Source: an uncultured bacterium
GTDB taxonomy: Bacteria; Verrucomicrobiota; Verrucomicrobiia; Limisphaerales; UBA11358
Length of the DNA stretch: 64,000 nucleotides
NCBI GenBank assembly: GCA_963723125.1
Contig: CAVRPQ010000001.1
Location: forward strand, 761,767-825,766
Direction of reading: 5' to 3'
Shown here one piece after another: positions 4,015-32,556 of this stretch. Under the pieces are notes generated by a model. It was not told the DNA's origin, made no database searches, and saw only the letters and a program-made list of their open reading frames with translations. The position numbers and the translations under genes were made by a program. Position 1 is the stretch's first letter. Every line of letters begins with the position of its first letter.

Positions 4015-4207
4015 CAAAATTGCCGAGCGGCCAGCGCTCTTTGATTGCGGATGGCCAGCCGGAGATTCTCGAAATCGCTGTAAAAGAAGAGTCGCAGAAA
4101 AGCTCGGCAAAAGATGTTAAGGAGTGAACAGGGCGGCTTACGGTAGTTCATCTCTAAATTGAAATCAGGGCTTGCGCATATGCGCCTGATGGATTAAAAG
4201 TGGAAAA

Positions 4208-4296
4208 GGCAATGGTGTTTGCCGACCCGCTGAAGGGTGAACTGCCCGACGATTTTAGGGCTAATGACTCCTACCGAGACAATTTGTATCGGTGGG
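4208..4296 (+). promoter_or_regulatory. structured 5' leader, copy 1 of 5 (possibly the Pedo-repair RNA motif)
   Basis: GGCAA..TTGCC hairpin, CCC/GGG hairpin, conserved core GGCTAATGACTCCTAC, 3' helix CCTACCGA/TCGGTGGG. Sigma70-like TTGCGC-17-TAAAAG ends 7 nt upstream. Confidence 0.55.
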
Positions 4297-4419
4297 AATT
4301 TTTTATGCTCAATTATATTCGAGTCGGAGTGGGCAGCGCGAGAGGTGGTATCTCGCGCTATTGTGCTTTCTGGCCTGATGCCAATCTTTCCAGCCCAGTG
4401 AAAGGAGTTTAAGTTTAAT

Positions 4420-4788
4420 ATGCACCTCCCCCACGATGCCATGTTGTTGCGAATCTTCGTCAGCGAAAACGACCGCTGCGGGCACAAACCGCTCTACGAA
4501 GCCATCGTGCTCAAGGCGCGCGAAATGCACCTGGCGGGCGCGACGGTGCTGCGCGGGCCGATGGGTTTTGGCAAAACCAGCCGGCTGTACACCGCAAAAA
4601 TTCTCCGACTTTCATTGGACCTGCCGCTCGTGATTGACATCGTGGACGGCGAGGAAAAGATCAATTCATTCCTGCCAGTGCTCGATGAGACAATGAAAGG
4701 CGGTTTGGTAACGCTGGAAAAGGCGCGCGTCATTGACTACCGCTCTGATGAGGAGAACGCCATCGGTGTGGAGCAACTCAAAAGTTGA
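4420..4788 (+). CDS. DUF190 (PII-like fold) protein, first gene of the Ehr-type operon
   Basis: 122 aa. LRIFVSENDRCGHKPLYEAIVLKAREMHLAGATVLRGPMGFG is typical of DUF190. AAGGAG lies 12 nt upstream. Confidence 0.75.
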   Translation: MHLPHDAMLLRIFVSENDRCGHKPLYEAIVLKAREMHLAGATVLRGPMGFGKTSRLYTAKILRLSLDLPLVIDIVDGEEKINSFLPVLDETMKGGLVTLEKARVIDYRSDEENAIGVEQLKS

Positions 4789-4790
4789 TT

Positions 4791-5741
4791 ATGTTCAACC
4801 ACATTCTATTCAATCTGATTCAAGTTTTGGTTGTCATGGCCTTTGCGCCGCTGGCGTCCGGCGTGTTGTCGCGCCTCAAGGAAATGGTGCAGTCCAAACG
4901 CGGGCCGAGCATTTTCCAGCCTTATCGCGATTTGTGGAAACTGTTCCACAAGGACGAAATTGTGTCGGAAGACAGCTCGTGGATTTTCCGGTTCACGCCC
5001 TACATGGTTTTCGTCACGCCCATTTTTGTCACTTTGCTGATTCCGGTGCTGACGAATTATCCTCTCTTTTTCGCCTTTATGGGCGACATGATTGGCGCGG
5101 GGTTTATTTTATCGCTGGGCGGCTTTTTCGCCACGCTTGCGGCGATTGACACCGCCAATCCTTATGGTCCAGTCGGCGCCAGCCGCACGCGCATGGTGGG
5201 CTTTCTGGCCGAGCCGGTGTTCATGATTGTATTCTTCACCGTTTCCTTTGTGGCCGGTTCGACCATTCCCTACATCGTCCAGGAAAAATGGGTGACCCCG
5301 CTGGCAAATTTTTTCCTGCCCTCGCACGTGTTGCTGGTGTTGGCGTTTCTGATGCTGATTCTGGCCGAAGGCGGGCGCATTCCGGTGGACAATCCGACCG
5401 GCCATTTTGAACTGGCGATGATTGACGAGTCCAAGTCGCTCGAATACTCCGGGCGCGGCTTCGCGCTGATGAAATGGGGCGGGCAAATGAAATTGTTCGT
5501 GCTGATGATCGTTTTCCTCAACGTCCTGCTGACACCGTGGGGCTTGACAGGTGGTCAGACGCTTGGCGCGGTGCTGCTGGCCATTCCCCTTGTGCTGTTT
5601 AAAATATTCTGCTTCCTGCTCGTGCTGGTCGTCATTGAATCGTCATTGTCCAAGCTGCGGCTGTTCCGCATCGCGGAATTTTTAGGTGCGGCGTTCATCA
5701 CCTGCGTCGCGGCCATGATTGCCCAAGTCTTTTTATCTTGA
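4791..5741 (+). CDS. NuoH/HyfC/HycD-like membrane subunit (EhrB-like)
   Basis: Polytopic membrane protein. N-terminus ...SRLKEMVQSKRGPSIFQPYRDLWKLFHKDE matches the HycD/NuoH pattern. A TTG at 4785 overlapping the upstream stop is an alternative start. Confidence 0.85.
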   Translation: MFNHILFNLIQVLVVMAFAPLASGVLSRLKEMVQSKRGPSIFQPYRDLWKLFHKDEIVSEDSSWIFRFTPYMVFVTPIFVTLLIPVLTNYPLFFAFMGDMIGAGFILSLGGFFATLAAIDTANPYGPVGASRTRMVGFLAEPVFMIVFFTVSFVAGSTIPYIVQEKWVTPLANFFLPSHVLLVLAFLMLILAEGGRIPVDNPTGHFELAMIDESKSLEYSGRGFALMKWGGQMKLFVLMIVFLNVLLTPWGLTGGQTLGAVLLAIPLVLFKIFCFLLVLVVIESSLSKLRLFRIAEFLGAAFITCVAAMIAQVFLS

Positions 5742-5748
5742 ACGAAAA

Positions 5749-6459
5749 ATGAGCGACACCACCAATCAATTATTAAGTAATCTGAACTCCCTGGTGACAG
5801 GGCTGTTCTTACTGACGGCCTTTGGCATTGTGGCCATGCGGCAGGCGCGCGGCGTTTTGTATCTGTTCATCGTCCAATCCCTCCTGCTGGCCGCGTCCGC
5901 GGTGCTGCTGGCAATGCGTTACAATGCGGGACATCTTTACGGTGTGGCGCTGGTCAACCTCATCAGCAAACCCATCATCGTCCCGTGGCTGTTGCGCAAA
6001 ACTTCGCCGGCGGAAGTTTATACGCGCCGCGAAGTGACGCAGGCGCTGAACATCCCGATGGCCTTGCTCATCGCGCTGGCGCTGACGATTCTGGCCTACT
6101 TTTTGGGTCTGCCGCTGCTCAAGGCCGTCGCGCCGGAATTTCGCGGACCCAACGTGCCGATCGGCATCGCCGGCTTGCTGCTCGGCGCGTTCACCATCAC
6201 CGTGCGGCGCGAAGCCCTGCCGCTGCTCATCGGCCTGCTGGTCATGGAAAACGGCGCGTTTCTGGCGGGCATTGACATTGCCCGCAATCTTAAAATGCTG
6301 ATTGAACTGGCCATCGCCACGGACGGCTTGATCATTGTTTTCATCATGGGCGTGCTGACACGCGCCGTTCAAAAACAAATCGGCACCACGGCCGTCGGTG
6401 AACTGGCGACGTTGAAGGAAACGCCCACGGAATTCTTTAAGAAGGAGACAACGAAATGA
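5749..6459 (+). CDS. HyfE-like small membrane subunit (EhrC-like)
   Basis: About 236-aa hydrophobic protein between the NuoH-like and NuoN/M-like genes, as in hyf operons. Confidence 0.7.
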   Translation: MSDTTNQLLSNLNSLVTGLFLLTAFGIVAMRQARGVLYLFIVQSLLLAASAVLLAMRYNAGHLYGVALVNLISKPIIVPWLLRKTSPAEVYTRREVTQALNIPMALLIALALTILAYFLGLPLLKAVAPEFRGPNVPIGIAGLLLGAFTITVRREALPLLIGLLVMENGAFLAGIDIARNLKMLIELAIATDGLIIVFIMGVLTRAVQKQIGTTAVGELATLKETPTEFFKKETTK

Positions 6460-7955
6460 GCATTCCCATCATTTTGCTGCTGCCGCTGATTGCGACCGTG
6501 CTTGTTTGTCTGCCCTTGAAAAAAGCGTGGGCGTCGGGCGTGACCGTCGTGGCGCCGCTGGCGACTTTGATTTTATCCGCGCGAGTCGCGTGGCTGGTTT
6601 CCGCCGGCAATTCCGTCACCGCCGATTTGAGCGCCGGCTGGCATAATTGGATTGCCGTGGACGGCTTAGGCGCGCTGATTCTGGTGTTGATTGCGTTTGT
6701 CGCAACGACGGCGGCGATTTTCTCCGTCGGCTACATGGCGCATGGAAATTTGAAAGCGGGAAAACTCCGGCTCTACTACATCAATTACAACCTGTTCGTC
6801 TTTTCCATGCTGGCCATTCCGGTTTTGGCCGAGCCGACGTTGGTATGGATTGTCGTGGAAATAACCACGTTGGCTTCCGCGCTGCTCGTCTCGTTTGAAA
6901 ATACACGCGAGGCGCTGGAGGCGGCGTGGAAATACGTCGTCCTCTCGCTCATGGGCGCCGGCATGGCACTGTTCGGCTTCCTCGTTTTGTTCGCCGCGAT
7001 GCAGGCGTCGGGCAGCAACGATGCCTACACTTGGAATAACTTGATTGCCGCCGCGCCGCTGATGCCGCCGGTCCTGCTCCAAACAGCCTTTCTGCTGATT
7101 TTAATCGGTCTCGGAACAAAAGTTGGCTTGGTCCCGATGCACACCTGGCTGCCGGATGCACACAGCCAGGCGCCGTCGCCCGTGTGCGCGCTGCTTTCGG
7201 GCATTGAAACCACCTCCATCCTTTACGTCATTCTGCGGCTGTTTCCGGTGATGCAGGCCGCTCCCCATTCCCACGCCGAAACCTGGGCCGTCGTGCTCGG
7301 TCTGATTTCGGTCGGCACCGCCGCGTTTTTGCTGCTGCAAGTGAAAGATTACAAACGCATGTTCGCTTTCTCAACGGTTGAGCACATGGGAATCATTTTA
7401 ACGGCGGTTGGCCTGGGCGCATCGGTCGCCGGTTACGCCGCGATGCAACAAATCGTCAGCCATTGCGTGACCAAATCCTTCTGCTTCTTCGCTGCCGGCG
7501 CGGTGCTGCTGGCCGTGGAAACGCGCCAAATCGTCTCGGTGCGCGGCCTGATTCGACAATCGCCTTTCGCCGGCGCTGCCCTCGTTTTCGGCGGTCTGGC
7601 GATTGCCGGTGCGCCGCCGATGGCGGTTTTCTTGAGCGAATTTTCGATTCTCAAAGCCGGACTGACGCAGAAAGAATATATCGCCACGGGGTTGCTCGCC
7701 GTTTTCATCGTCATCGCCTTTTTCGGAATCATGTTGCACGTCAACCGCATGGTGTTCGGCGCGAGTGAAAGTGAAACAGGCAAAACAAATTACGAACTCC
7801 GAACTCCGAACTCCGAACTCCAGAAATTTCATTTGCCGTTCAGTTGCCGGCTGGCGCTGATTCTGGCCGCTGTGCCGGTCCTCGTTTTCGGCTTTTACAT
7901 TCCACAACCGTTGCACGACTTGTTGACTCAAGCTGCCGCTGCTTTGACGAAATGA
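6456..7955 (+). CDS. HyfF / NuoN-NuoM-like antiporter-type subunit (EhrD-like)
   Basis: 499 aa. ATGA overlap with the upstream stop. Proton-antiporter motifs (GLVPMHTWLPDAHSQAPSPV, FSTVEHMG). Confidence 0.85.
   Translation: MSIPIILLLPLIATVLVCLPLKKAWASGVTVVAPLATLILSARVAWLVSAGNSVTADLSAGWHNWIAVDGLGALILVLIAFVATTAAIFSVGYMAHGNLKAGKLRLYYINYNLFVFSMLAIPVLAEPTLVWIVVEITTLASALLVSFENTREALEAAWKYVVLSLMGAGMALFGFLVLFAAMQASGSNDAYTWNNLIAAAPLMPPVLLQTAFLLILIGLGTKVGLVPMHTWLPDAHSQAPSPVCALLSGIETTSILYVILRLFPVMQAAPHSHAETWAVVLGLISVGTAAFLLLQVKDYKRMFAFSTVEHMGIILTAVGLGASVAGYAAMQQIVSHCVTKSFCFFAAGAVLLAVETRQIVSVRGLIRQSPFAGAALVFGGLAIAGAPPMAVFLSEFSILKAGLTQKEYIATGLLAVFIVIAFFGIMLHVNRMVFGASESETGKTNYELRTPNSELQKFHLPFSCRLALILAAVPVLVFGFYIPQPLHDLLTQAAAALTK
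7794..7821. repeat. tandem heptamer (GAACTCC)x4 inside the HyfF-like CDS
   Basis: Direct read: gaactcc gaactcc gaactcc gaactcc, translated YELRTPNSELQ. Confidence 0.9.
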
Positions 7956-7968
7956 AAAATCAATCGCT

Positions 7969-9747
7969 ATGAACCGCACCGAATTAAAGACTGAAATTGA
8001 CCAACGCTGGCCCGCCCAGGTGCAGTGCCGGTCTGAATCCGCTTCACTGTGCGAACTGGCCTGCGCCCGCGCCGCGTTGCCGGAGCTGTGCGGACGCCTT
8101 TTCCTCGAATGGAATTTCAGCTTCGCGGGATTGATCGTCGAGGAAGGCGCGAGCGAATGGCAGTTGCGTTACGCCTTTTACGGCGACGTGGCTGCGGCGC
8201 CCCCGCCGCAGAATGTGCGCGCAACGTCTTCGTCGAGCGAAACGCAAATGGCGAAATCGGGCGACGTGGCGTCGCCTTCACTGACTGTGACGAAGGCGTC
8301 GCAGCCAATCGGTTGGGTTCATGTGCTGGTCACTGCGCCGCTCGCTGAAAAGACTTTTCCGAGTATTGTCAAATTCGTTCACGCCGCCGACTGGCACGAG
8401 CGCGAAGCGGAAGATTTGTTCGGCATCCACTTTGATGGCCATCCGCGTCTCGGCGACTTCATTCTGCACGACGACGCCTGGCAGGAAAACGTCGAGCCGA
8501 TGCGCCGGCATTTCGATCCGAAGGCGGCGATGCGCCATCGCAAGCCGGATGAAGACTGGCGGCCGCATCGTATTGTTCAAGAGCCGGGCGCGTTCGTGAT
8601 GCCGGTCGGACCAAAATATTCCGGCGTCACCGAGTCGGTTCATTTTCTGCTCGAAACGGTTGGCGAAGATGTCATCCGCTCCACGCCGCGCCTGTTCTAC
8701 AAATGGCGTGCGATTGAAAAACTCGCCGAGGGCAAAACGGCGGATGAAGTTTTGTTGCTGGCCGAACGGTTTGCGGCGACCACGGCCTTTGCTCACGGAC
8801 TCGCTTATTGTCAGGCCGTTGAAAGCATTTGCGGTGCGAATGTTCCGCCGCGCTCCAAGACCCTGCGTGTGTTTCTGGCTGAACTGGAACGGCTGCGCCA
8901 GCACGCCGGCGCGATTCAAGAAATTTGCGAGTCCACCGCACTGGCTGTGGCCAACGCACACGCAGGAATTTGCGAGGAGGAATTGCTGCGCATTTCCGGC
9001 GAACTCACCGGCCATCGCTATCTGTTTGGGCTGCTTGCGCTTGGCGGATTGCTTTGCGATTTGCCGAACGATGCCTGTGCCAAGGCGCTCGAAAAATCGC
9101 AGAAGGTTTTGACGCAACTGAACGTGCTGGAAAAGCATTTGCGCGTTTCCAGCAGTTTTTTGGACCGGCTGGAAGAAGTTGGCATCGTGCCGGAACGGAC
9201 GGCGATGGTTTATGGCTTGCTAGGACCCATTGCCCGCGCGTCGGGCATCATCCGCGACCTACGCCGCGCGCAACCGTATTTGGGTTACGAAAATCTTCAG
9301 TTCGACGTGCCGGGCGAGCAGGAAGGCGACGGCTATGCGCGGTTGCGGATTCTATTCGCCGAAGCAAGACAATCGGGTCGCATCATGGAACAAGCCGTTG
9401 CCGCATTGAACAAGGTAGGGCGGGCCAGTCCTCTGCCCGCCGCCCGTCAGCCTACGCAGGACGGCGCGCACGGAGTGGCGCGCCCTACCAACTCCAAGGA
9501 CAGCGATATTTGTGCGCCGTTTCAATTTCGCGCGGGCGCGGCGTTGGGCTGGGTCGAAGCCCCGCGCGGCGGCGCATTTCATTGGGTGCGGCTGGATGGA
9601 AATGGAAAAGTCGCGCGCTATCGCATCATCGCGCCTTCCTTTGCCAACTGGCACGGGTTCCATTTGTCCGTGGAGAAGTTCGCGTTCCAGGATTTTCCCA
9701 TCATGCTCTCCACGTTTGATCTGTCCGTGTCCGAGAACGACCGATGA
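7969..9747 (+). CDS. fused NuoC/NuoD-like 'large subunit' (HycE/HyfG homolog) lacking NiFe ligands (EhrL-like)
   Basis: 592 aa, alignable by eye to HycE. AERFAATTAFAHG replaces AERVCGICGFAHS. C-terminal FDLSVSENDR replaces DPCYSCTDR. Carries two in-frame repeat insertions. Confidence 0.85.
   Translation: MNRTELKTEIDQRWPAQVQCRSESASLCELACARAALPELCGRLFLEWNFSFAGLIVEEGASEWQLRYAFYGDVAAAPPPQNVRATSSSSETQMAKSGDVASPSLTVTKASQPIGWVHVLVTAPLAEKTFPSIVKFVHAADWHEREAEDLFGIHFDGHPRLGDFILHDDAWQENVEPMRRHFDPKAAMRHRKPDEDWRPHRIVQEPGAFVMPVGPKYSGVTESVHFLLETVGEDVIRSTPRLFYKWRAIEKLAEGKTADEVLLLAERFAATTAFAHGLAYCQAVESICGANVPPRSKTLRVFLAELERLRQHAGAIQEICESTALAVANAHAGICEEELLRISGELTGHRYLFGLLALGGLLCDLPNDACAKALEKSQKVLTQLNVLEKHLRVSSSFLDRLEEVGIVPERTAMVYGLLGPIARASGIIRDLRRAQPYLGYENLQFDVPGEQEGDGYARLRILFAEARQSGRIMEQAVAALNKVGRASPLPAARQPTQDGAHGVARPTNSKDSDICAPFQFRAGAALGWVEAPRGGAFHWVRLDGNGKVARYRIIAPSFANWHGFHLSVEKFAFQDFPIMLSTFDLSVSENDR
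8190..8306. repeat. palindromic element family B, copy B1 (in frame in the large-subunit gene)
   Basis: Termini GGCTGCGGCGCC ... GGCGTCGCAGCC. 117 nt encoding VAAAPPPQNVRATSSSSETQMAKSGDVASPSLTVTKASQP. Confidence 0.7.
9414..9489. repeat. palindromic element family A, copy A1 (in frame in the large-subunit gene)
   Basis: GGTAGGGCG...CGCCCTACC termini. Encodes VGRASPLPAARQPTQDGAHGVARPTN in a region where my recalled E. coli HycE sequence shows no comparable segment. Confidence 0.85.
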
Positions 9748-9781
9748 AATCGTCAATCGAAAATCTTAAATCGTAAATGCT

Positions 9782-10528
9782 ATGAGCCAATGGGTCATCA
9801 ACGGCATTCGCGCCGGAATCAAAACGACCGCGTATCCAGCCAAGCCGGAGGCTGGGGCAGGTGTGACGCCTGGTTTGCCGGTGGGCGGAGATTATCCCGC
9901 TAGCGAAATTGATTCACTAATTTCGCGTTGCCCAACCGATGTGTTCAGCGACAGCGACGGCCAAATTATCGCGGACGTTCGTCGCTGCATTCATTGTTAC
10001 CGCTGTGTTCGCGACATTGAACACCCGGTGAATTGGCAGCAATCCTATGAGTGGGGAATTGCCCGTGACGGCCAGCATGAATTCGGCCAGCCGTTCGAGC
10101 GTTCGATTCATATCTGCGTCGTGGACGCGGGCGATTGTGGCGCGTGCCTCAATGAAGTTCGGCAACTCAACAATCCGTATTACAACATGCACCGGCTCGG
10201 ATTTTTCATCACGCCTTCGCCGCGCCACGCGGACGTGCTGCTGGTTGTCGGCCCGGTAACGGACCACATGAAGTTCGCATTAAAGAAAGTTTATGATGCC
10301 ATGCCCACACCCAAGCGGGTCATCGCCGTCGGTGCGTGCGCTTTGACCGGCGGAGTGTTTGCCGGGAGTTTTGTCTGCGCCAAGGGAGTGGCGGACGTGT
10401 TGCCGGTGGACGTGGAAGTGCCCGGCAATCCGCCGCCGCCACTGGCAATTCTGCACGGGCTGCTTGTGGCGGTTGGTCGCAAAGCGCCGGCGGCGCGGGC
10501 AACTGAAAATAAGGTGGTGAAAGCATAA
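9782..10528 (+). CDS. NuoB/HycG-like small subunit with N-terminal ferredoxin remnant (EhrS-like)
   Basis: DCGACLNEV, SPRHADVLLVVGPVT and AVGACALTGG match HycG/NuoB. VPGNPPPP replaces PGCPP. The N-terminus keeps RCP...CIHCYRC (one 4Fe-4S-like motif). Confidence 0.85.
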   Translation: MSQWVINGIRAGIKTTAYPAKPEAGAGVTPGLPVGGDYPASEIDSLISRCPTDVFSDSDGQIIADVRRCIHCYRCVRDIEHPVNWQQSYEWGIARDGQHEFGQPFERSIHICVVDAGDCGACLNEVRQLNNPYYNMHRLGFFITPSPRHADVLLVVGPVTDHMKFALKKVYDAMPTPKRVIAVGACALTGGVFAGSFVCAKGVADVLPVDVEVPGNPPPPLAILHGLLVAVGRKAPAARATENKVVKA

Positions 10529-12757
10529 ATGGATACGCCAACGCTCATTTCAATCTTTTTTGCGCTTTGCGGCGTGGGCATTTTGCTGTCGCTGGCCGCA
10601 CCCCGGTCGCGTCAAGGCAACGTGCTTGCGTGGCTGGGTTGTCTCGCATCCATTGCTTTGATTTTGGCTGGCGCAAGCGCATTGCTGGCCGGAAAGACTT
10701 TCAACCAGCCGCTATGGACGTTGCCGGGATTGGCGGCCACGCTCACGGTAAAATTGGACTTCCTCTCGGCGGTGTTCATTTTCGTCACCGGCCTGGTGCT
10801 TTTTCCAGCTTCAATTTTCGGGCGTGGCTGCGACGCCTCGTCGCAGGCGCGTGGACGCGACGCCCGCGTCGCGCGAGAAACAGAGGGCGACGAGGCGTCG
10901 CCTTTACCTTCTGCGACGAGGGCGTCGCAGCCACGCGCGTTCACGGTATTCATGTTCGGCCTCTATGCGTCCATCGCCCTGATTTTTCTGGCGGGTGATG
11001 TCGTGCCGTTCCTTCTGGCATGGGAAGTGATGTCCATACTTTGTTGGCTGCTCATCGTGTGCGCACGGGAAAAGGGAAATGACCATGCTGGTTCGGGTTA
11101 TCTGCTGCTGGCGATGGGAGAAGCGGGAACGCTCGCGGCGGCGCTTGGTTTTCTTCTGCTCGCGGTTGGAACCGGATCATTGGATTTCGGCGGAATCAGG
11201 TCGGCGGCGTCAGGCTTGGACGCTGGAGTGCGATGGGCGGTCTTCCTGCTTTCATTCTTCGGCTTCGGCGTGAAGGCCGGATTGGTCCCGGTGAATTTCT
11301 GGTTGCCGCGCGCCTATGTCGCCGCGCCGCGCGCTTTTGTGCCAGTGCTGGCGGGCGCGACGCTGAACCTCGGCCTTTATGGAATTTTGCGAGTGAACGC
11401 CGACCTCATGCCGGCGACCCACACCGCGCCGGGCTTGGTCGCGCTCATTGTCGGCACACTCTCCGCTCTGATCGGGATTCTTTATGCGACGACGGACAAT
11501 GACCTCAAAATCATGCTGGCGCACAGTTCAATTGAGAACGTGGGCATCATCGTCGCCGGCTTCGGCGCGGGAATGGTTTTTGTGGCGACCAATCATCCGG
11601 CGCTGGCGGCAATCGCCTTCGTCGCGGCGCTGTATCATTTAATCAATCACTCGCTATACAAAACTCTGCTGTTCTTCGGCGTGGGGACGGTGGAAGCACA
11701 AACCGGCACGCGCGACATGGACCGGCTCGGCGGCTTGAGCAAATGGATGCCGCTCACCTCCCTTGGATTTCTCGTCGGCGCGCTTTCCATCGCCGGGCTG
11801 CCGCCGTTCAACGGTTTTGTGAGTGAATGGCTAACGCTGCAAACCATGCTGCGCTCGGCGGAACTTTCGGCGATTGGCGCAAAATTGGTTTTCGCCCTGT
11901 GTGGCGCGGGGCTGGCATTGACGGCGGCTTTGGCAGTCACTTGTTTCGTGAAAGTTTATGCGATGAGCTTTTTGGGAATGCGACGCCTGGAGGAAGAACA
12001 GAAAGTCAACGAAGCCAAATCCGGCTCGCTCACGCCAATGGCCATCCTTGCCGCGTTGTGCCTCGCGTTTGGCGTGCTGCCAACATACATAATTCCCGCG
12101 CTGGCCCTAGCGACCAATTCCTTGGATGGCGTGAGTGCCGCCGATGCGCTTGTGCCACCATTCTTTGCTTCCAGTCCGGCGCACGGCACGTTACCGCCCG
12201 CCTTCGTTGAAGATTTTCATAATATCGGCGCCCAAGTGGGACAAAGTATTCTACCCGGACGCGGCTTGGTCGTGCTCCATCGAGGCGGCACGGAAAATCC
12301 GGTGGTCTTCGCCATGTCCACTTCCTACATGATCGTGGTTTTGCTTGTTTTGCTGCTGCTGACATACGTTATTGTCTGCCTTTGGCTGACGCGCAGCCGG
12401 AAATTGACGCGGCGGCTGCGTTGGGACGGCGGCGTGCGAAATTTGCTGCCGGAGATGACTTACACGGCGACGGGCATTTCCAATCCAGTGCGGGTGATTT
12501 TCGACGCGGTGTTCCGGCCAACAACGGTGGAGGACACGCGCGAAACCGTGGCGGAACATTTTCGCACGGCCATCATCCGTGAGAAAGAGCGCGTGCATTT
12601 GGTGGACAAGCTGGTTTTTCATCCGGTCAGGACGGTGGTGATGTGGTTTGCCGGCCGTCTGGCGCGGATGCACCACGGACGATTCAACGCCTACGCGGCG
12701 TATGCGCTGTTGACGTTGCTGGTCGTGCTGGTCGTGTTTTTATTCCAAACATCGTAA
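10529..12757 (+). CDS. NuoL/HyfB-like antiporter subunit, paralog 1 (EhrA-like)
   Basis: 742 aa. Motifs WEVMSILCWLLI, FGFGVKAGLVPVNFWLPRAY, AHSSIENVG. HyfB-type C-terminal domain RWDGGVR..LPEMTYTATG. Confidence 0.9.
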   Translation: MDTPTLISIFFALCGVGILLSLAAPRSRQGNVLAWLGCLASIALILAGASALLAGKTFNQPLWTLPGLAATLTVKLDFLSAVFIFVTGLVLFPASIFGRGCDASSQARGRDARVARETEGDEASPLPSATRASQPRAFTVFMFGLYASIALIFLAGDVVPFLLAWEVMSILCWLLIVCAREKGNDHAGSGYLLLAMGEAGTLAAALGFLLLAVGTGSLDFGGIRSAASGLDAGVRWAVFLLSFFGFGVKAGLVPVNFWLPRAYVAAPRAFVPVLAGATLNLGLYGILRVNADLMPATHTAPGLVALIVGTLSALIGILYATTDNDLKIMLAHSSIENVGIIVAGFGAGMVFVATNHPALAAIAFVAALYHLINHSLYKTLLFFGVGTVEAQTGTRDMDRLGGLSKWMPLTSLGFLVGALSIAGLPPFNGFVSEWLTLQTMLRSAELSAIGAKLVFALCGAGLALTAALAVTCFVKVYAMSFLGMRRLEEEQKVNEAKSGSLTPMAILAALCLAFGVLPTYIIPALALATNSLDGVSAADALVPPFFASSPAHGTLPPAFVEDFHNIGAQVGQSILPGRGLVVLHRGGTENPVVFAMSTSYMIVVLLVLLLLTYVIVCLWLTRSRKLTRRLRWDGGVRNLLPEMTYTATGISNPVRVIFDAVFRPTTVEDTRETVAEHFRTAIIREKERVHLVDKLVFHPVRTVVMWFAGRLARMHHGRFNAYAAYALLTLLVVLVVFLFQTS
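10826..10932. repeat. palindromic element family B, copy B2 (in frame in paralog 1)
   Basis: GGCTGCGACGCC ... GGCGTCGCAGCC. Encodes [36 protein letters not shown]. Absent at this position in paralogs 2 and 3. Confidence 0.85.
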
Positions 12758-12768
12758 AACTTTTTCAA

Positions 12769-13011
12769 CCACGGATGGACGCGGATGAACACGGATAAAA
12801 AAAGCTGTGCGTGGTCAGAAATCGCGCCAGCGTCCTGGAGTGCGGTGGCAGAGCGCAGCGACGACACCGCTTTCCCACGCCGGACGGCACCCGCAGCGAT
12901 TGATACTCGTGCCGCCGAAAGCGGCGTCGCGCTCCGCTTGCCGCCGCAGTCCAAAACCTCGCGGCGGTTCGAGCGGAGTTTGAATCCGTGTCCATCCGTG
13001 TTCATCCGTGG
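12769..13011. repeat. MITE-like structured element of about 243 bp between paralogs 1 and 2
   Basis: Imperfect terminal inverted repeats built from ATCCGTG units (ccacggatggacgcggatgaacacggat / atccgtgtccatccgtgttcatccgtgg). Internal imperfect palindrome (gagtgcggtggcagagcgcagcg... / ...cgcgctccgcttgccgccgcagtc). Confidence 0.8.
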
Positions 13012-13025
13012 TTCAGATTGAATTT

Positions 13026-15227
13026 ATGAGCGCGGATGGATTGCTGCTCACGCTGATTTTCGCGCTGTGCTTTGCCGGCGCGCTGGCGGGAATTTTTGTC
13101 CCCGACCGGCGCAATCCGGCGCTGCTGGCCTGGACCGGATCGCTGGCGGCGCTCCTGACGTTGTGGGTCAGCGGCAATGTCCTGTGGTCGGGGCAAGTGT
13201 TCCAAGCCGAACTCTGGACGATTCGTGGTTTGGGAACGCTGACCGTTTCAATTGACCGTCTCTCGGCGCTCTTCCTGGCAGTGGCGGCGCTGGTGGTTCT
13301 GACCAGTTCGATTTTCTCGGCGGGTTATTTGAAACGCTATTCCGGCCACTACAACCTGAAGGCGCACAACGCCTGGTATCTGCTGCTGTTCGCTTCCATC
13401 GTGCTCATCCTGATTGCGAACGACGCGCTGTTGTTCCTGCTGGCGTGGGAGGCGATGTCCATTTTGAGCTATCTGCTCGTCAATTTCGAGCACCGTCGCG
13501 CCGAAACCAGCCGCGCGAGTTATCTCATGCTGGTAATGGGCGAAGCGGGCTTCATCGCGGTCGCGCTGGTGTTCCTGTTTCTCGCGGTGAAAACCGGCTC
13601 GCTGGATTTTTCTGCGTTCAGAACGGCGGGCGCTAACCTCGGCGGCTTTGCCCGCTGGACAATTTTTCTGCTGACGTTCTTTGGTTTCGGCGTCAAAGCC
13701 GGGTTGGTGCCGGTCAACACCTGGTTGCCGCGCGCCCACCCTGCCGCGCCTGCGAACGTCTCGGCAATTTTGTCCGGCACGATTTTGAACCTGGGACTTT
13801 ACGGTATTGTCCGCGTAAATCTCGACCTCGTGTCCGTCACGCAAAACGGAATGATTGGCGCGGGCGTGGTGGTGCTCATCATTGGGACAATTTCCGCACT
13901 GGTCGGAATCCTCTATGCGACCACCGAGAACGACCTCAAGGCCATGCTCGCACACAGCTCGATTGAAAACATCGGCATCGTCACCGCCGGCCTCGGCGCG
14001 GGCATGATTTTCACCTGCTACAACAAACCAGCACTGGCGGGCATCGCTTTCATCGCCGCGTTTTATCACATGATCAACCACTCGGTGTATAAATCGCTGC
14101 TGTTTTTTGGCGCGGGAACCGTGGACGACCGCGCCGGCACGCGCGATTTGAACAAACTCGGCGGCCTGATTCGCGCAATGCCGTGGACGGCGGGTGCGTT
14201 TTTGGTGGGCACGCTGGCGATTTCAGCGTTGCCGCCGTTCAACGGGTTCGTCAGCGAATGGCTCACGCTGCAAACGATGCTGCGCTCGGCGGAACTGCCC
14301 TCGACGCTCGTGAAATTGGTTTTCGCGTTATGTGGCGCGGGGCTGGCGCTCACGGCGGCACTGGCCGTGACGTGTTTCGTCAAGGCGTTTGCGATGGGCT
14401 TTCTCGGCATGTCGCGTTCAGAAGAAGCCGCCAAAGCCGTGGAAGCGAAAACTCCATCAATCGCGCCGATGATTCTTTTGGCATCGCTCTGTGTGCTGCT
14501 CGGCGTGCTGCCGACATACATAATTCCGGCGTTGGACACGGCGGTTCGTGGCTGCGACGCCTCGTCGCAGAGCGTGGGTGCGACGGGGGCGTCGCAGCCA
14601 CCAAATGCCGCCGACGCGCTGGTGCCGCCTTTCTTCGCCTCGAACCCGGCGCACAACACGTTGCCAACCGCGCTCGTGGAAGACTTTCATAATATCGGCG
14701 CGCAAGTTGGACAGAATGTATTGCCCGGACGCGGCTTGGTGGTGCTCCATCGCGGCGGCACGGAAAATCCGGTCGTTTTTGCCATGTCCACCTCCTACAT
14801 GGTCATCGTCTTAGGCGCATTGCTATTGGGGGTTTACGTTGTCATCCGCTTGTGGCTGACGCGAAATCGAAAGTTGGCTCGGCGGACACGCTGGGATGGC
14901 GGGGTGCGGCGTCTGTTGCCGGAAATGACTTACACGGGCACCGGCTTTTCCAATCCGGTGCGCGTGATTTTTGACGCGGTGTTTCGCCCAACCACGGTGG
15001 AGGACACGCGCGAAACCGTGGCGGAACATTTCCGCACCGCCATCCGGCGCGAGCGGGTGGCGGTGCATATCGTGGATCGCTGGTTCATCCAGCCGACCAA
15101 AAATGCCGTGATGGGATTGGCCCGTGGTCTGGCGGTGATGCACCACGGGCGCATCAACGCCTACGCCGGCTACGTGTTGCTGGCGCTGCTGGCGGTCGTG
15201 CTGTTTTTGCTGATACTGACATCGTGA
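13026..15227 (+). CDS. NuoL/HyfB-like antiporter subunit, paralog 2
   Basis: Start taken at ATG 13026 (MSADGLLL), just past the repeat element. Collinear with paralogs 1 and 3. Confidence 0.9.
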   Translation: MSADGLLLTLIFALCFAGALAGIFVPDRRNPALLAWTGSLAALLTLWVSGNVLWSGQVFQAELWTIRGLGTLTVSIDRLSALFLAVAALVVLTSSIFSAGYLKRYSGHYNLKAHNAWYLLLFASIVLILIANDALLFLLAWEAMSILSYLLVNFEHRRAETSRASYLMLVMGEAGFIAVALVFLFLAVKTGSLDFSAFRTAGANLGGFARWTIFLLTFFGFGVKAGLVPVNTWLPRAHPAAPANVSAILSGTILNLGLYGIVRVNLDLVSVTQNGMIGAGVVVLIIGTISALVGILYATTENDLKAMLAHSSIENIGIVTAGLGAGMIFTCYNKPALAGIAFIAAFYHMINHSVYKSLLFFGAGTVDDRAGTRDLNKLGGLIRAMPWTAGAFLVGTLAISALPPFNGFVSEWLTLQTMLRSAELPSTLVKLVFALCGAGLALTAALAVTCFVKAFAMGFLGMSRSEEAAKAVEAKTPSIAPMILLASLCVLLGVLPTYIIPALDTAVRGCDASSQSVGATGASQPPNAADALVPPFFASNPAHNTLPTALVEDFHNIGAQVGQNVLPGRGLVVLHRGGTENPVVFAMSTSYMVIVLGALLLGVYVVIRLWLTRNRKLARRTRWDGGVRRLLPEMTYTGTGFSNPVRVIFDAVFRPTTVEDTRETVAEHFRTAIRRERVAVHIVDRWFIQPTKNAVMGLARGLAVMHHGRINAYAGYVLLALLAVVLFLLILTS
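14550..14599. repeat. palindromic element family B, short copy B3 (in frame in paralog 2)
   Basis: ggctgcgacgcctcgtcgcagagcgtgggtgcgacgggggcgtcgcagcc, encoding GCDASSQSVGATGASQP. Paralogs 1 and 3 lack it at the same site. Confidence 0.85.
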
Positions 15228-15272
15228 TGAGTCCGACATTCGTCGAAGTCGTCGCGGCAGTGGAAAAGATTT

Positions 15273-17447
15273 ATGGCCGCGAATGGCCTGTTGCTGGAAT
15301 TGATTTTCGCGCTGTGCGTTGCGGGCGCGCTGGCGGGAATTGTTGTCTCCGACCGGCGCAGTCCCGCGCTGCTGGCCTGGGCCGGCTCGTTGGCGGCGCT
15401 GCTGGCGTTATGGGTCAGCGGAAGCGTCCTGTGGTCGGGCCGAATTTTTCAAGCCGAACTCTGGACCATTCCCGGCTGGGGAACGCTGACGATTTCTCTC
15501 GACCGTTTGTCGGCGTTCTTTCTGGCGGTGTCGGCGTTGGTGGTTTTGGCCAGTTCCATTTTTTCGGCGGGCTACCTAAAACGATACATTGGGCATTACA
15601 GCCTTCGTGCGCTGAATGCGTGGTATCTGCTGCTGTTCGCTTCCATCGTGCTGGTTTTAATTGCCAGCGACGCGCTCCTGTTTCTGCTGGCGTGGGAGGT
15701 GATGACGATTTTGAGTTATCTGCTGGTCAATTTCGAGCACCGGCGCGCGGAAACCAGTCGGGCAGGCTATCTCATGCTGGTGATGAGCGAGGCGGGATTC
15801 ATGGCGGTCGTCTTGGTCTTTCTGTTTTTGGGCGCAATGGCCGGCTCGCTGAACTTCGCTGCCTTGAAAGCCGCCGGGCCAAATTTGGGCGGTCTAGCGC
15901 GCTGGCTGATTTTCCTGTTGACGTTTTTCGGCTTTGGCGTCAAGGCGGGACTGGTGCCCGTGAATTCATGGCTGCCGCGCGCACACCCGGTCGCGCCGGG
16001 AAACATTTCCGTGATCCTCTCCGGCGTCATCGTGAATCTTGGCATCTATGGCATCATGCGCGTCAGCGTGGATTTGGTGCCGGTGACCAGCGTGATTCCG
16101 GGGCTGATTGTTCTGCTGGTGGGCGCGGCGTCGGCGTTGATCGGCGTATTGTATGCCAACATCGAGCACAATTTGAAGACCATGCTGGCGCACCATACTG
16201 TCGAGCAAATGGGGATTGTCACCATCGGGCTGGGGGCGGGACTGGTCTTCGTGGCGGCGGGGCGGCCCGTGCTGGCCACCATCGCCTTCATCGCTGCCAT
16301 TTATCACATGGCCAATCACTCGTTTTTCAAGGGACTGCTCTTTTTGTCGGCGGCTTCGGTGGATGCCACCGCCGGTGCGCGAAACATTGACCGGCTGGGG
16401 GGCTTGATCAAGCGGATGCCGTGGACGGCGTTCTTTTTCCTCATCGGCGCAATTTCACTGGTGGCGCTGCCGCCGTTCAACGGCTTTGTCAGCGAGTGGC
16501 TCACCCTGCAAGTGCTGCTGCGAAGCACGGAACTGTCCTTCACCGGCGCGACGGGCGCGAAAATTGTTTTCGTCCTGTGTGGCGCGGGCCTGGCGCTGGC
16601 GACGGCGCTGGCGGTCAATTGCTTTGTAAAGGCTTTCGCCATGACCTTCCTCGGCGTGGGACGGTCCGACGACGTGAACGCAGCGAGGGAAGCGCCCCAT
16701 TCTATGACTTGGGCGATGGGGCTGCTGGCGGCGTTGTGCCTCGGCTGTGGCGTGTTGCCGACTTATATCATCCCGGTTTTGAATAACGTGATTACGCCGT
16801 TGACGGGCGGAAATGCGATAGACGCGCTGGTGCCGCCATTTTTCGTTTCCAATCCGGCGCACAACACGTTGCCGCCCGCGTTCGCGCAGGATTTTCACAA
16901 CCTGGGGGCGCAAGTCGGGCAAAATGTTTTGCCCGGACGCGGGCTGGTGGTCATGCACCGCGGCGGCGCGGAAAATCCGGTCGTTTTCGCCATGTCCACT
17001 TCCTACATGGTTGTTGTGCTCATAGGCTTGCTGGTGATAACCTACGTCGTCCTGCGCTTGTGGCTGACGCGCCGCCAGAAACTGGTGCGGCGGCAACGGT
17101 GGGATGGCGGCGTGCGGCGGCTGTTGCCGGAGATGACCTACACGGCGACGGGCTTTTCCAATCCGGTGCGCGTCATTTTCGACGCCGTGTTCCGCCCGAC
17201 GACGATTTCGGACACGCGCGAGACCGTGGCGCAACATTTCCGCACGGCCATCCACCGCGAGCGCGTGGAAGTGCATGTGGTGGACCGATGGTTCCTCCAG
17301 CCGATGCGGAATACCGTGACGAATTTGGCCCGCCGCCTCGCGGTCATGCACCACGGGCGCCTCAACGCCTACGCCGCTTATGTGCTGCTGGCGGCAATGC
17401 TGGCCGTGGCGATTGGGGTGATTGGCTTATTACTTTGGTCAAACTGA
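15273..17447 (+). CDS. NuoL/HyfB-like antiporter subunit, paralog 3
   Basis: 724 aa, collinear with paralog 2 (same motifs and same C-terminal domain). Confidence 0.9.
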   Translation: MAANGLLLELIFALCVAGALAGIVVSDRRSPALLAWAGSLAALLALWVSGSVLWSGRIFQAELWTIPGWGTLTISLDRLSAFFLAVSALVVLASSIFSAGYLKRYIGHYSLRALNAWYLLLFASIVLVLIASDALLFLLAWEVMTILSYLLVNFEHRRAETSRAGYLMLVMSEAGFMAVVLVFLFLGAMAGSLNFAALKAAGPNLGGLARWLIFLLTFFGFGVKAGLVPVNSWLPRAHPVAPGNISVILSGVIVNLGIYGIMRVSVDLVPVTSVIPGLIVLLVGAASALIGVLYANIEHNLKTMLAHHTVEQMGIVTIGLGAGLVFVAAGRPVLATIAFIAAIYHMANHSFFKGLLFLSAASVDATAGARNIDRLGGLIKRMPWTAFFFLIGAISLVALPPFNGFVSEWLTLQVLLRSTELSFTGATGAKIVFVLCGAGLALATALAVNCFVKAFAMTFLGVGRSDDVNAAREAPHSMTWAMGLLAALCLGCGVLPTYIIPVLNNVITPLTGGNAIDALVPPFFVSNPAHNTLPPAFAQDFHNLGAQVGQNVLPGRGLVVMHRGGAENPVVFAMSTSYMVVVLIGLLVITYVVLRLWLTRRQKLVRRQRWDGGVRRLLPEMTYTATGFSNPVRVIFDAVFRPTTISDTRETVAQHFRTAIHRERVEVHVVDRWFLQPMRNTVTNLARRLAVMHHGRLNAYAAYVLLAAMLAVAIGVIGLLLWSN

Positions 17448-17471
17448 AACCAAAACTTGAAACCGAAAACT

Positions 17472-18827
17472 ATGAGTAAAATTGAAAACATAAACGCACA
17501 GGAAATTCTGGATTCGCGCGGCAACCCGACCGTCATGGTCACGCTCACGCTCGAGAATGGCATTACCACGTCGGCCTGCGTGCCGTCCGGCGCGTCCACC
17601 GGCATTCGCGAAGCCGTGGAACTCCGCGACGGCGACGCCAAACGCTACGGCGGCAAAGGCGTGCTCAATGCAGTCGCCAACGTCAACAAAATCATCGCGC
17701 CAAAACTCAAGGGCAAATCGCCGCAGGCCCATAAGGAAATTGACGAATTGATGATCAAATTGGATGGCACGGAAAACAAATCCAAACTCGGCGCGAACGC
17801 CATTCTGGGCGTTTCGATGGCCGTTTGCCGCGCGGCGGCGCTGGATTCCGACACCCCGCTTTACGCTTACATCTCCAAGTTGCATGGTAGGGCGCGTCAC
17901 TCCGTGCGCGCCGAACGAGGTGGTCACGAAAGCGGCGCGCAGGGGACTGACGCGCCCTACCTTTTGCCCGCGCCGCAAATGAACGTGCTCAATGGCGGCG
18001 CGCACGCGACCAACAACGTGGATTTTCAGGAATTCATGCTGTTCCCCATCGGCGCGCCGAGTTTTGCCGAGGCCTTGCGCTATGCGGCGGAAACGTTTCA
18101 TACGCTCAAAAAAATTCTGCAAAAGCGCGGACTGGTTTCCGCCGTCGGCGACGAGGGCGGTTTCGCGCCGAGCCTCAAAACGAACGACGAAGCGGTGGAG
18201 TTGATTCTTGAAGCCATTAACGCTGCCGGTTACAAACCGGGGAAGGACATCGCACTCGCCATTGATCCGGCCGCCAGCGAGTTTTACGACAGCGGCGCTT
18301 ACGTCTTCAAAAAATCCGACAACTCGCGCAAATCGCCAGCCGAAATGGTCGAACTGTATCGCGGCTGGCTGGACAAATATCCCATTCTCTCGCTCGAAGA
18401 CGGCATGGGTGAGGAAGATAACGACGGTTGGAAAGCGTTGACCGCCGCTCTTGGCAAAAAACGGCAACTCGTCGGCGACGACAATTTCGTCACCAACCCG
18501 AAAATTTTTGCCGAAGGCATTCGTGACGGCATTGCCAACGCGATTCTCATCAAATTGAACCAAATCGGCACGGTCAGCGAGACGCTCGAAACGGTGGCGA
18601 TGGCGCAAAAGGCCGGTTACGGCACGGTGATTTCACATCGTTTGGGCGAAACCGAGGATGCCTTTATCGCGGATTTCGCCGTTGGCACCGGCGCGGGCCA
18701 GATCAAGACCGGCTCGCTTTGCCGGTCGGAACGAATTGCAAAATACAATCGCCTGCTCGCCATTGAACGCGAGTTGGGCAAAAAATCGCGCTACGGTGGC
18801 GCGGCGTTTAATGCCCGTTGGAAGTGA
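17472..18827 (+). CDS. eno: enolase (phosphopyruvate hydratase) carrying an in-frame repeat insertion
   Basis: [21 protein letters not shown]..., [44 protein letters not shown]. Confidence 0.95.
17886..17961. repeat. palindromic element family A, copy A2 (reverse orientation, in frame in eno)
   Basis: ggtagggcgcgtcactccgtgcgcgcc...gcgccctacc, encoding [25 protein letters not shown] between YISKLH and [13 protein letters not shown]. Confidence 0.9.
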
Positions 18828-18999
18828 TAGTATGATTTGGGAGCGCCGCGACTTGGATCCACTAGGCAAACTCCATTACCCGCGGGAGGGGCCGGGAGAA
18901 ATCCGGTCACCACATTCAAGGCGTGTGCGCTCCCTTTAACCGCTCTGTAGAGTGCCGGGATGGTTGTTATTCGTCCCAAAGGATGGTAAAGTTTTAGCA

Positions 19000-19085
19000 G
19001 GCAATGAAGTTTGCCCGTCCGCCTTTGCGGCGAACCGCCTTATGGCTAATGACTTCTACCGAAACTGAACCAGTATCGGTAACGA
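19000..19085 (+). promoter_or_regulatory. structured 5' leader, copy 2
   Basis: GGCAA/TTGCC, CCGC/GCGG, core GGCTAATGACTTCTAC, TACCGA/TCGGTA helix ending just before ATG 19089. TTGTTA-17-TAAAGT promoter upstream. Confidence 0.6.
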
Positions 19086-19088
19086 GTC

Positions 19089-28759: not shown

Positions 28760-28828
28760 ATTTCATTTTTAAGATATTGCTGGTTTTGCGGCGCTTGCCA
28801 TTGAAGCAGCGGATGCTATATTGAATCC

Positions 28829-28911
28829 GGCAATGGAATCTGCCTCCCGGCTCGCGGGAAAACGCCCTCCGGCTAATGACTCCTACCAAAACAAAATGAA
28901 ATGGTAGTGGG
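28829..28911 (+). promoter_or_regulatory. structured 5' leader, copy 3
   Basis: GGCA/TGCC, CCCG/CGGG, core GGCTAATGACTCCTAC, 3' arm GGTAGTGGG ending 2 nt before ATG 28914. TTGCCA-16-TATATT promoter at 28795-28822. Confidence 0.65.
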
Positions 28912-29668: not shown

Positions 29669-29681
29669 AAGGCAATGAACC

Positions 29682-30818: not shown

Positions 30819-30821
30819 AAC

Positions 30822-32542: not shown

Positions 32543-32556
32543 CCAAGGATGGTTCG

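Follow-up and report, generated by a model that had tools for sequence, protein, structure and literature searches.

What does a complex built like a formate hydrogenlyase (FHL) do for its cell when the subunit that should carry the nickel-iron (NiFe) centre has lost all the cysteines that would hold it? The question is raised by a nine-gene operon at 4420-17447 in a 64-kb stretch of the genome of an uncultured bacterium of the Verrucomicrobiota; the whole stretch is called the window here, and our statements on gene content hold for it. We found that the operon stands behind a fluoride riboswitch, in the window and in its relatives, and that it encodes a complex of the type named Ehr. We see about an even chance that its products, judged from their sequences, form a complex that is induced by fluoride and translocates ions to protect cytoplasmic pH and the proton-motive force.

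Genes were called from the list of open reading frames (ORFs) with Pfam, and their products were compared with the equivalog cut-offs of NCBIfam and, by phmmer, with solved structures. Nine ORFs on the + strand fill 4420-17447, every reading frame intact, and give the Pfam series DUF190, NADHdh (NuoH-type), a weak NuoK-type match, Proton_antipo_M, Complex1_30kDa with Complex1_49kDa, Oxidored_q6, and Proton_antipo_M three times over. Each subunit is nearest to hydrogenase-4, FHL or Nuo models of NCBIfam, and the equivalog cut-off is reached by none. An earlier reading of the letters alone (the sequence-only reading) had given the order and coordinates of these nine genes, which the ORF list and Pfam bear out, and had noted that hyp and formate dehydrogenase genes are absent from the window, which is also the case; its extent for the unit, 4420-17447, proved too short, the transcription unit running from the riboswitch at 4199 through an enolase gene to 18827. 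The features of that unit are these:

4199-4280, + strand: fluoride riboswitch aptamer (crcB RNA motif, RF01734), full-length, 53.4 bits, E=5.6e-12 (56 bits with our own covariance model, R2)
4268-4305, + strand: expression platform, a terminator hairpin CCUACCGAG...UCGGUGGG followed by AAUUUUUU (U-run), overlapping the 3' aptamer strand
4305-4409, + strand: truncated crcB (Fluc fluoride channel) remnant of 35 codons, in which MLNYIRVGVGSARGGISRY aligns to the CrcB N-terminus
4420-4788, + strand: DUF190/COG1993 protein (Pfam PF02641, E=7.4e-37; PDB 2dcl_A, 2e-24), its stop overlapping the next start
4785-5741, + strand: NuoH/HycD-like membrane anchor (Pfam NADHdh; HycD 7z0s_D, 3.9e-44)
5719-6459, + strand: HyfE-like (NuoK-type) membrane subunit (NCBIfam hydrogenase-4 membrane subunit, 1e-23, below cut-off; weak Pfam Oxidored_q2)
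6456-7955, + strand: HyfF/NuoN-like antiporter-type subunit (Pfam Proton_antipo_M, 1.4e-44; NCBIfam hydrogenase 4 subunit F, 1e-99, below cut-off)
7969-9747, + strand: fused NuoC-NuoD/HycE-like large subunit (Complex1_30kDa and Complex1_49kDa; HycE 7z0s_E, E=2.9e-50)
9782-10528, + strand: NuoB/HycG-like small subunit with a reduced HycF/NuoI-type domain fused N-terminally (Oxidored_q6; HycG, 3.6e-26; MbhJ, 1.5e-27)
10529-12757, + strand: HyfB/NuoL-like copy 1 (Pfam Proton_antipo_M; NCBIfam hydrogenase 4 subunit B, 5e-148, below cut-off)
13008-15227, + strand: HyfB/NuoL-like copy 2 (Proton_antipo_M; HycC 7z0s_C, 1.2e-60)
15273-17447, + strand: HyfB/NuoL-like copy 3 (Proton_antipo_M; NCBIfam match below cut-off)
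17457-18827, + strand: enolase (Pfam Enolase_N and Enolase_C, 1.7e-116)

The HyfE-like gene probably has its true start at 5749, and its protein has 236 aa in the source record.

Rfam cmscan (RF01734, gathering score 34), with R2 as a second scan, placed four fluoride riboswitches in the window, all on the + strand, the one at 4199-4280 standing 140 nt 5' of the DUF190 gene. The region 4255-4312, which spans its expression platform, folds at -21 kcal/mol (z=-5.15), and none of 200 shuffled sequences was as stable. Terminator-type expression platforms have been described for the fluoride riboswitch class (PMC2864571), and by analogy with that class (PMC2864571, PMC11139923) fluoride binding should switch transcription of the operon ON, a prediction we regard as well supported. 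The first gene behind the switch is a wreck: about the first 20 residues of the crcB remnant match the N-terminus of full-length CrcB in two related loci (L073 and L009), after which the sequence diverges and meets a stop. The assignment to the CrcB family is by Pfam PF02537 on one related locus, and no intact crcB was found in the 64-kb window. At the other end the enolase gene starts 10-25 nt 3' of the last HyfB-like gene with neither a terminator nor a riboswitch in between, and no + strand terminator was found in 17300-19120; we presume that enolase is the last gene of the fluoride-controlled transcript.

Is this linkage peculiar to one genome? The large subunit was used to scan 185,579 species genomes, which yielded 366 loci of close relatives; the best 80 of the 366 were examined, and the riboswitch count refers to the 72 of these that have upstream sequence. 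For this count R2 was built from 20 diverse riboswitch copies, many of them validated by Rfam. A same-strand fluoride riboswitch lies within 2.1 kb upstream of the NuoH-like gene in all 72 loci, mostly at 30-250 nt and at about 500-850 nt where crcB, DUF190 or both intervene. A first model, R1, made from the four window copies, had picked up riboswitches in just 31 of 71 loci; it was discarded when Rfam confirmed the element in six of six missed loci, which put the shortfall down to bias of the model. The order of the core genes, NuoH-HyfE-HyfF-CD-B-HyfB (H-E-F-CD-B-L), is constant among the examined loci, and in this clade Rfam confirmed a riboswitch in every locus checked (10 of 10, six close and four distant). 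Relatives with the same gene order at 56, 46, 43 and 41% identity likewise have RF01734 just upstream (4/4).

The best 80 loci are all from metagenome-assembled genomes (MAGs), largely from bog, palsa, peat and soil according to the record titles, and are labelled as Verrucomicrobiota, Acidobacteriota, Beta- and Gammaproteobacteria, Actinomycetes, Nitrospira, Planctomycetota, Gemmatimonadales, Binatia and others, at least ten phyla altogether. What recurs around the operon is in keeping with its switch in the sense that crcB is present in 32 of the 80 loci, several of which read riboswitch-crcB-DUF190-nuoH, that a DUF190 gene adjoins the operon in at least 21 related loci, and that an enolase gene is no farther than 10 kb away in about 35 of the 80, in several phyla. 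Other recurrent neighbours are USP and MutS_V proteins, dynamin-like GTPases, AAA_16 ATPases and metallophosphoesterases. FdhF, HycB, a separate HycF, hyp and hycI were found neither in the window nor among the recurrent neighbours of the 80 loci. Three verrucomicrobial loci (L005, L012 and L021) have two enolase genes flanking the operon: the downstream, same-strand one is about 85% identical to that of the window, and the upstream, opposite-strand one about 55%, with no riboswitch. The pair may represent a stress copy and a housekeeping copy.

The linkage has a boundary, which we traced in more distant sequences. A search of 1.8 billion representatives returned many clusters of large subunits lacking the cysteines, and in a quick neighbor-joining tree these fall into several distinct clades with true four-cysteine hydrogenases between them. 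In Ehr loci of the Bacteroidota/Ignavibacteria type, with the order L-H-E-F-CD-FerB, a riboswitch was found in neither of the two loci examined, and the fourth former NiFe-ligand position is Gly there and Glu in the clade of the window. 'Ehr' is heterogeneous, and the window belongs to a fluoride-linked clade (H-E-F-CD-B-L) distinct from the Bacteroidota-type Ehr. One locus at about 35% identity, L096, has the complete fluoride neighbourhood of USP, MFS, enolase, DUF190, CrcB, His_Phos_1 and MutS_V genes and an upstream element that scores 32.5 bits with our own model, under the Rfam threshold, on a contig that looks frameshifted; its riboswitch linkage is probable. Three distant representatives (P0150, P0170 and P0161) were left out of the context comparison for their short contigs. 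A tblastn search of 72,556 plasmids returned nothing closer than 33.6% identity.

With the control of the operon described, the next question is what has become of the active site. Aligned by phmmer to E. coli HycE (7z0s_E, E=2.9e-50), the large subunit has ERFAATTAFAH opposite DRVCGICGFAH and DLSVSEND opposite DPCYSCTD, and the four NiFe cysteine positions of HycE are A269, T272, S586 and E589. The protein ends at R592, while the HycE chain continues for 32 residues past the aligned Arg, these being the maturation peptide. The quinone ligands of complex I are absent as well, His38 and Tyr87 of T. thermophilus Nqo4 (2fug_4) aligning to T221 and A270, both of which are invariant across the large-subunit alignment of relatives. 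Across 120 homologous clusters (68-83% identity) the replacement motifs ERFAATTAFAHG and DLSVAENDR hardly vary, and dN/dS against one relative is 0.06-0.12 for four subunits, a mark of strong purifying selection; because the motifs are so conserved and dN/dS so low, the loss of the cysteines is neither sequencing error nor chance. Throughout the fluoride-linked clade, invariant polar or acidic residues, T271, T272, S586 and E589, occupy the old NiFe site instead, with E266, H276 and D591 as neighbours. Two Ala/Pro/Ser-rich low-complexity insertions, at residues ~74-113 and ~483-516, are specific to the lineage and bring the large subunit to 592 aa, against 525-526 aa in almost all relatives.

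The small subunit tells of a similar loss. It has VPGNPP opposite the VPGCPP of MbhJ and HycG, so that N216 stands at the position of the fourth proximal-cluster cysteine, and keeps C119, C122 and C186, which are present in all 75 small subunits compared; position 216 in the same 75 is N in 51, Q in 12, H in 7, C in 2, S in 2 and D in 1. The CxxC is of the hydrogenase type (C119-G-A-C122), and there is no tandem CC of the N2 type. In the N-terminal ferredoxin-type set C50-P51 comes first and C69xxC72xxC75 follows, with C50 conserved in 75/75, C69 in 74/75, C72 in 69/75 and C75 in 74/75, which makes seven conserved Fe-S cysteines in the family. On the residues retained, the proximal [4Fe-4S] cluster would be held by three cysteines only. 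In the ligand scheme given for MbsN the medial cluster, next to the proximal one, is bound by motif 1 (CP) and motif 2 (CxxCxxC) (PMC8165549), and by this analogy the site formed by C50, C69, C72 and C75 would be the medial [4Fe-4S] cluster, the distal cluster having been lost.

Deeper fluoride-linked relatives show the earlier states. Three of them, L087, L089 and L092 (41-46% large-subunit identity), retain GCPP, and L089 has in addition a complete two-cluster HycF-like N-terminal domain, which matches HycF at 4e-7 and MbsN at 3e-6. Because deeper relatives keep GCPP and L089 keeps the two-cluster domain, the ancestor was a HycF-HycG fusion that lost its ligands stepwise, and comparison of the sequences implies the order of loss along the lineage: the NiFe site went first, the distal cluster next and the fourth proximal cysteine last.

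These alignments agree in nearly every respect with what the sequence-only reading had made of the peripheral arm by eye. The large subunit does align to HycE with all four NiFe cysteines replaced, its C-terminus does read DLSVSEND where HycE has DPCYSCTD, and neither conserved CxxC pairs at the L1 and L2 positions, which in group 4 hydrogenases read RxCGxCxxxH and DPCxxCxx[H/R], nor a sequencing artefact was seen (120 clusters; dN/dS 0.06-0.12). In the NuoB-like subunit CxxC and GAC are kept and GNPP takes the place of GCPP, leaving three of four proximal ligands in the alignment with MbhJ and HycG. The ferredoxin part had rightly been described as reduced to a single set, the order of which has to be reversed, CP preceding CxxCxxC.

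The membrane arm has fared differently from the peripheral arm. The NuoH-like protein is the most conserved subunit (74 loci), with 52% of its positions at least 98% conserved, and its TM5-6 loop (between transmembrane helices 5 and 6), PVDNPTGHFELAMIDES, is invariant and non-canonical, the HycD equivalent being PFDLAEAEQEL. The median identities of the relatives to the window are:

NuoH-like subunit: 88%
HyfE-like subunit: 80%
HyfF-like subunit: 74%
small subunit: 70%
HyfB-like subunit: 70%
large subunit: 64%

Compared with HycC, HyfB-like copy 2 retains the motifs with TM5 Glu, TM7 Lys, TM8 His, TM11 Lys and TM12 Glu, and these proton-path motifs are found in about 85 of 99 members of the HyfB-like family. 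The three paralogs are 55-71% identical, copy 2 being 60% identical to copy 1 and 71% to copy 3, and copy number varies among relatives: 32 loci have a single copy, 18 have two, and only one other locus has three. An extra HyfB-like gene with a fluoride riboswitch of its own stands several kb from the operon in L007 (riboswitch at 18642-18714), L008 (18934-19006) and L021 (14827-14899); this suggests that under fluoride stress the antiporter-like module can be of use by itself. Between copies 1 and 2 the window has a 250-nt gap (12758-13007), unusually long beside the ~20-110 nt of relatives; on a near-identical contig the gene caller put a 78-aa ORF into a gap matching 12758-13007.

What, then, is the complex? 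Ehr is defined by a gene set like that of group 4 hydrogenases with a large subunit lacking the NiFe-binding cysteines and with antiporter-like subunits (PMC6349859, PMC10284858); it was named for GSU0739-45 of Geobacter sulfurreducens and described in genome surveys, and its function is still called unknown in these papers (PMC6349859, PMC7894505, PMC10284858). The window operon is an Ehr in this published sense. It has NuoL-, NuoH-, HyfE- and NuoN-like subunits along with large and small subunits (names as in PMC7894505), and it differs in having, with its clade, the fluoride riboswitch, the order H-E-F-CD-B-L and an acidic residue at the fourth 'ligand' position; none of the three papers (PMC6349859, PMC7894505, PMC10284858) mentions fluoride. 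The sequence-only reading had named the Ehr type, and the subunit set and cysteine-less large subunit support it (PMC6349859, PMC10284858), incomplete as that reading was: alongside its correct account of the missing hyp and formate dehydrogenase genes it had passed over the riboswitch that precedes DUF190 by 140 nt, the remnant of crcB, the enolase gene co-transcribed with the operon and the fluoride island described below, features that jointly place the complex in a physiological setting.

Comparison with better-known relatives sharpens the picture. The best structure matches are to E. coli Hyc (7Z0S), with HycE at 2.9e-50, HycD at 3.9e-44 and HycC at 1.2e-60, and the membrane subunits are like those of Hyf/FHL-2 (HyfB, C, E and F types). 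In contrast to Hyc and Hyf, the window has no NiFe ligands, maturation peptide, HycF/HyfH, HycB/HyfA, FdhF, hyp or hycI, its proximal cluster has three cysteines, and its control is by fluoride and not by formate via FhlA. The MBS/Mbx complex of Pyrococcus (6U8Y) has likewise lost hydrogenase activity and has a three-cysteine proximal [4Fe-4S] cluster (PMC8165549), but it keeps two of the four NiFe cysteines, a separate two-cluster MbsN and a full Mrp-type module, none of which the window has, and similarity is low (1e-24 for the large subunit, 3e-8 for the NuoH-like subunit). Complex I differs in its NuoD His/Tyr quinone ligands (Nqo4 His38, Tyr87) and tandem CC, both lacking here, and by Pfam no NuoA, NuoJ, NuoI, NuoE, NuoF or NuoG gene is in the operon. 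With Mrp antiporters the complex shares homologous MrpA/MrpD, that is NuoL/M/N-type, subunits with the conserved Lys/Glu proton path, and differs in lacking MrpB, E, F and G and in having a NuoH-like anchor and an Fe-S peripheral arm; a part in the homeostasis of pH and ions is plausible.

The closest likeness in regulation is to the fluoride riboswitch regulon itself, with which the window shares the RNA and, in its crcB remnant, DUF190, enolase, MutS_V and phosphoesterase genes, much of the gene content. Known members of this regulon are crcB, eriC-F, enolase, pyrophosphatase, Na+/H+ antiporters, MutS-related proteins and 'formate hydrogen lyase' (PMC2864571, PMC11139923, PMC5533749), and enolase is both inhibited by fluoride and induced through the riboswitch in E. 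cloacae (PMC5533749). 'Formate hydrogen lyase' genes were noted behind crcB motifs in 2010 (PMC2864571), and FHL is still listed among the enzymes most commonly associated with the riboswitch and read as a shift to fermentation (PMC11139923). While that literature takes the class for a true FHL, the window operon, an example of the class so labelled, is an Ehr-type complex without NiFe, and to judge from its residues it cannot be an FHL: because the NiFe ligands and the maturation peptide are absent, it would be unable to make or use H2. We found no paper that joins Ehr, hydrogenase-4 or complex I-like genes with the fluoride riboswitch in the openly searchable literature, outside of which lies work available by subscription only.

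We arrive at the following model for the ion-translocating complex. Rising cytoplasmic fluoride would fold the aptamer and block the overlapping terminator, whereupon the operon 4199-18827 would be transcribed and would supply the DUF190 protein, an Ehr-type membrane complex resembling complex I and formate hydrogenlyase, and extra enolase. We infer that the complex assembles from the NuoH-like anchor, the HyfE-like subunit, one HyfF-like and three HyfB-like modules and a peripheral arm, the latter made of a NuoCD-like subunit without NiFe and quinone sites and a NuoB-like subunit with two Fe-S clusters. Hydrogen fluoride (HF) enters cells by weak-acid accumulation and lowers cytoplasmic pH and the proton-motive force, and export of F- through Fluc consumes membrane potential (PMC11139923). 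HF that diffuses in and dissociates while F- leaves via Fluc/CrcB would thus make a cycle that acts as a protonophore and drains both, and the complex would translocate ions, most likely protons, in the direction that restores them. Its drive might be electrons from a soluble low-potential donor, passing through the medial and proximal clusters to an acceptor, or an Mrp-like ion exchange; the conservation of both clusters argues for electron input. The role in pH and proton-motive force is in keeping with the frequent co-transcription with crcB, with the intact proton-path residues and with the separately switched HyfB-like genes. Transporters for pH homeostasis are the second commonest class associated with the riboswitch (PMC11139923).

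Several considerations weigh against this model. All close relatives retrieved are MAGs, and a gene for an electron donor or acceptor is linked to the operon in no locus examined. As far as the residues tell, the NiFe and quinone sites are both absent, which would leave a redox drive without identified chemistry, while a pure antiporter needs neither seven conserved Fe-S cysteines nor a conserved peripheral arm. The number of HyfB-like modules ranges from one to three among close relatives, which is unexpected for a pump on a redox reaction of fixed energy (on redox energy and the number of pump modules see PMC8165549). Finally, that the NuoH-like subunit and its cavity loop are the most conserved parts could point to a bound or translocated substrate instead.

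This last point leads to the alternative that survives best, one that we nevertheless consider unlikely: that the complex is an energy-coupled exporter of F- or HF, with fluoride, perhaps as Mg-F, in the former NiFe/quinone cavity of the NuoCD-, NuoB- and NuoH-like subunits. Proton flow through the antiporter-like subunits would drive the expulsion, the number of HyfB-like subunits would set the H+/F- ratio, and the system would be of use in acidic habitats where Fluc, driven by membrane potential alone, may fall short. Such an exporter would suit the median identity of 88% in the NuoH-like subunit against 64% in the large subunit, the invariant non-canonical TM5-6 loop, the variable HyfB-like copy number, the filling of the former NiFe site by invariant T271, T272, S586 and E589, the fourth position being Gly in the Bacteroidota-type Ehr, and the deletion of crcB from an operon that kept the complex. 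In the DAB2 complex, a precedent, an antiporter-type module reportedly drives vectorial chemistry of a non-redox kind (PMC13144422). Yet crcB is co-located in 32 of 80 loci, often as first gene of the operon, which suggests that the roles of the two are complementary and not redundant; none of the known motifs for binding fluoride was identified; an exporter leaves the conserved Fe-S ligands unexplained; and a drive by proton influx would worsen acidification. The more specific proposal, read from the residues, that fluoride (Mg-F) binds to the Thr/Thr/Ser/Glu site or to the open iron of the three-cysteine cluster and that the antiporter-like subunits couple its expulsion, strikes us as quite doubtful.

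A redox enzyme with a new substrate seems to us distinctly improbable. Here the open iron of the three-cysteine proximal [4Fe-4S] cluster would be catalytic, ferredoxin would deliver electrons via the medial cluster, and induction by fluoride would reflect a metabolic shift or an oxidative-stress need and not ion homeostasis as such. The three invariant cysteines, with N, Q or H at the fourth position in 70 of 75 sequences, invite this thought, as do the retained cluster that adjoins the proximal one in the ligand pattern of the medial cluster of MbsN and the precedent of MBS, for which a three-cysteine proximal cluster has been proposed to be catalytic (PMC8165549). However, GCPP in L087, L089 and L092, with a full two-cluster domain in one of them, makes the three-cysteine state derived and not a defining trait, 6 of 75 sequences have another residue in place of C72, and neither a candidate substrate nor a partner oxidoreductase is linked in any locus.

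That we are dealing with a genuine formate hydrogenlyase or group 4 [NiFe]-hydrogenase whose missing cysteines are an error or are compensated is very hard to credit: relatives are annotated automatically as 'formate hydrogenlyase subunit 5' or 'Ni,Fe-hydrogenase III large subunit' and FHL is counted among riboswitch-associated genes (PMC2864571, PMC11139923), but all four ligands are gone with their replacements conserved, there is no C-terminal maturation peptide, FdhF, HycB, a separate HycF and hyp are absent from the window and related loci, and every subunit falls under the NCBIfam cut-offs. A decaying, non-functional remnant of a hydrogenase operon can be practically dismissed, for in spite of the progressive loss of cofactor ligands along the lineage and the truncated crcB next door, dN/dS is 0.06-0.12, all nine frames are intact, and subunit identities of 55-97% across at least ten phyla go with conserved gene order and regulation. 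Hydration of CO2 in the manner of DAB/CupA, suggested by DUF190 and the NuoL-like genes, was dropped on account of the riboswitch; no carbonic-anhydrase-like gene is linked.

The operon does not stand alone in the window. Three further riboswitches called by Rfam, each ahead of other genes, follow it, together with one more possible copy:

18991-19065, + strand: fluoride riboswitch 2, preceding two MutS_V proteins, an AAA_16 ATPase and a dynamin-like GTPase
28820-28892, + strand: fluoride riboswitch 3, preceding two metallophosphoesterases, a dynamin-like GTPase and an FGE-sulfatase protein
33484-33560, + strand: fluoride riboswitch 4, preceding a metallophosphoesterase at 33729-34316 (+)
33787-33859, + strand: possible fifth copy, seen with our own model only (35 bits), possibly in tandem with the fourth

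The window thus holds a fluoride-response island of about 30 kb, of which the hydrogenase-like operon is the largest unit. The phosphoesterases, the second dynamin-like GTPase and the FGE-sulfatase-family protein behind riboswitches 3 and 4 may, we suspect, be extra or replacement copies of enzyme classes that fluoride inhibits. The genes after riboswitch 2 span 19089-25665 (+), and the same families occur near the operon in about 15 related loci; the block behind riboswitch 3 spans 28914-33360 (+), and one of its metallophosphoesterases is fused to dUTPase_2. A tRNA gene at 35612-35683 (-; Rfam, 70 bits) ends the island and is followed by fpg-like, pyrH-like, tsf and rpsB genes. Three ORFs of 473 aa further on, at 45038-46459 (-), 48161-49582 (+) and 56959-58380 (+), share the same weak UPF0236 match and are probably copies of one mobile element.

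Two literatures have thus been describing the same genes without a connection between them, the Ehr surveys as a widespread complex and the fluoride riboswitch papers as 'formate hydrogen lyase'. What the riboswitch controls, both in the window and in 72 of 72 relatives, is an Ehr-type complex without NiFe, which corrects the functional assumption of the fluoride field that FHL under this switch means a shift to fermentation. Were the complex a fluoride pump, it would be the first active anion pump, primary or secondary, on the scaffold of complex I, and would join Fluc and CLC-F as a third class of fluoride exporter. There is a practical side as well, in that fluoride toxicity limits the biodegradation of organofluorine compounds and per- and polyfluoroalkyl substances (PFAS) and acid bioleaching. 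With its stepwise loss of ligands and an extremely conserved complex-I-like membrane part, the clade is a natural experiment on coupling machinery without the usual chemistry. For this clade of Ehr, the result supplies a defined inducing signal, and with it the phenotypes in which to look for its function: tolerance of fluoride and acid, internal pH and the proton-motive force.

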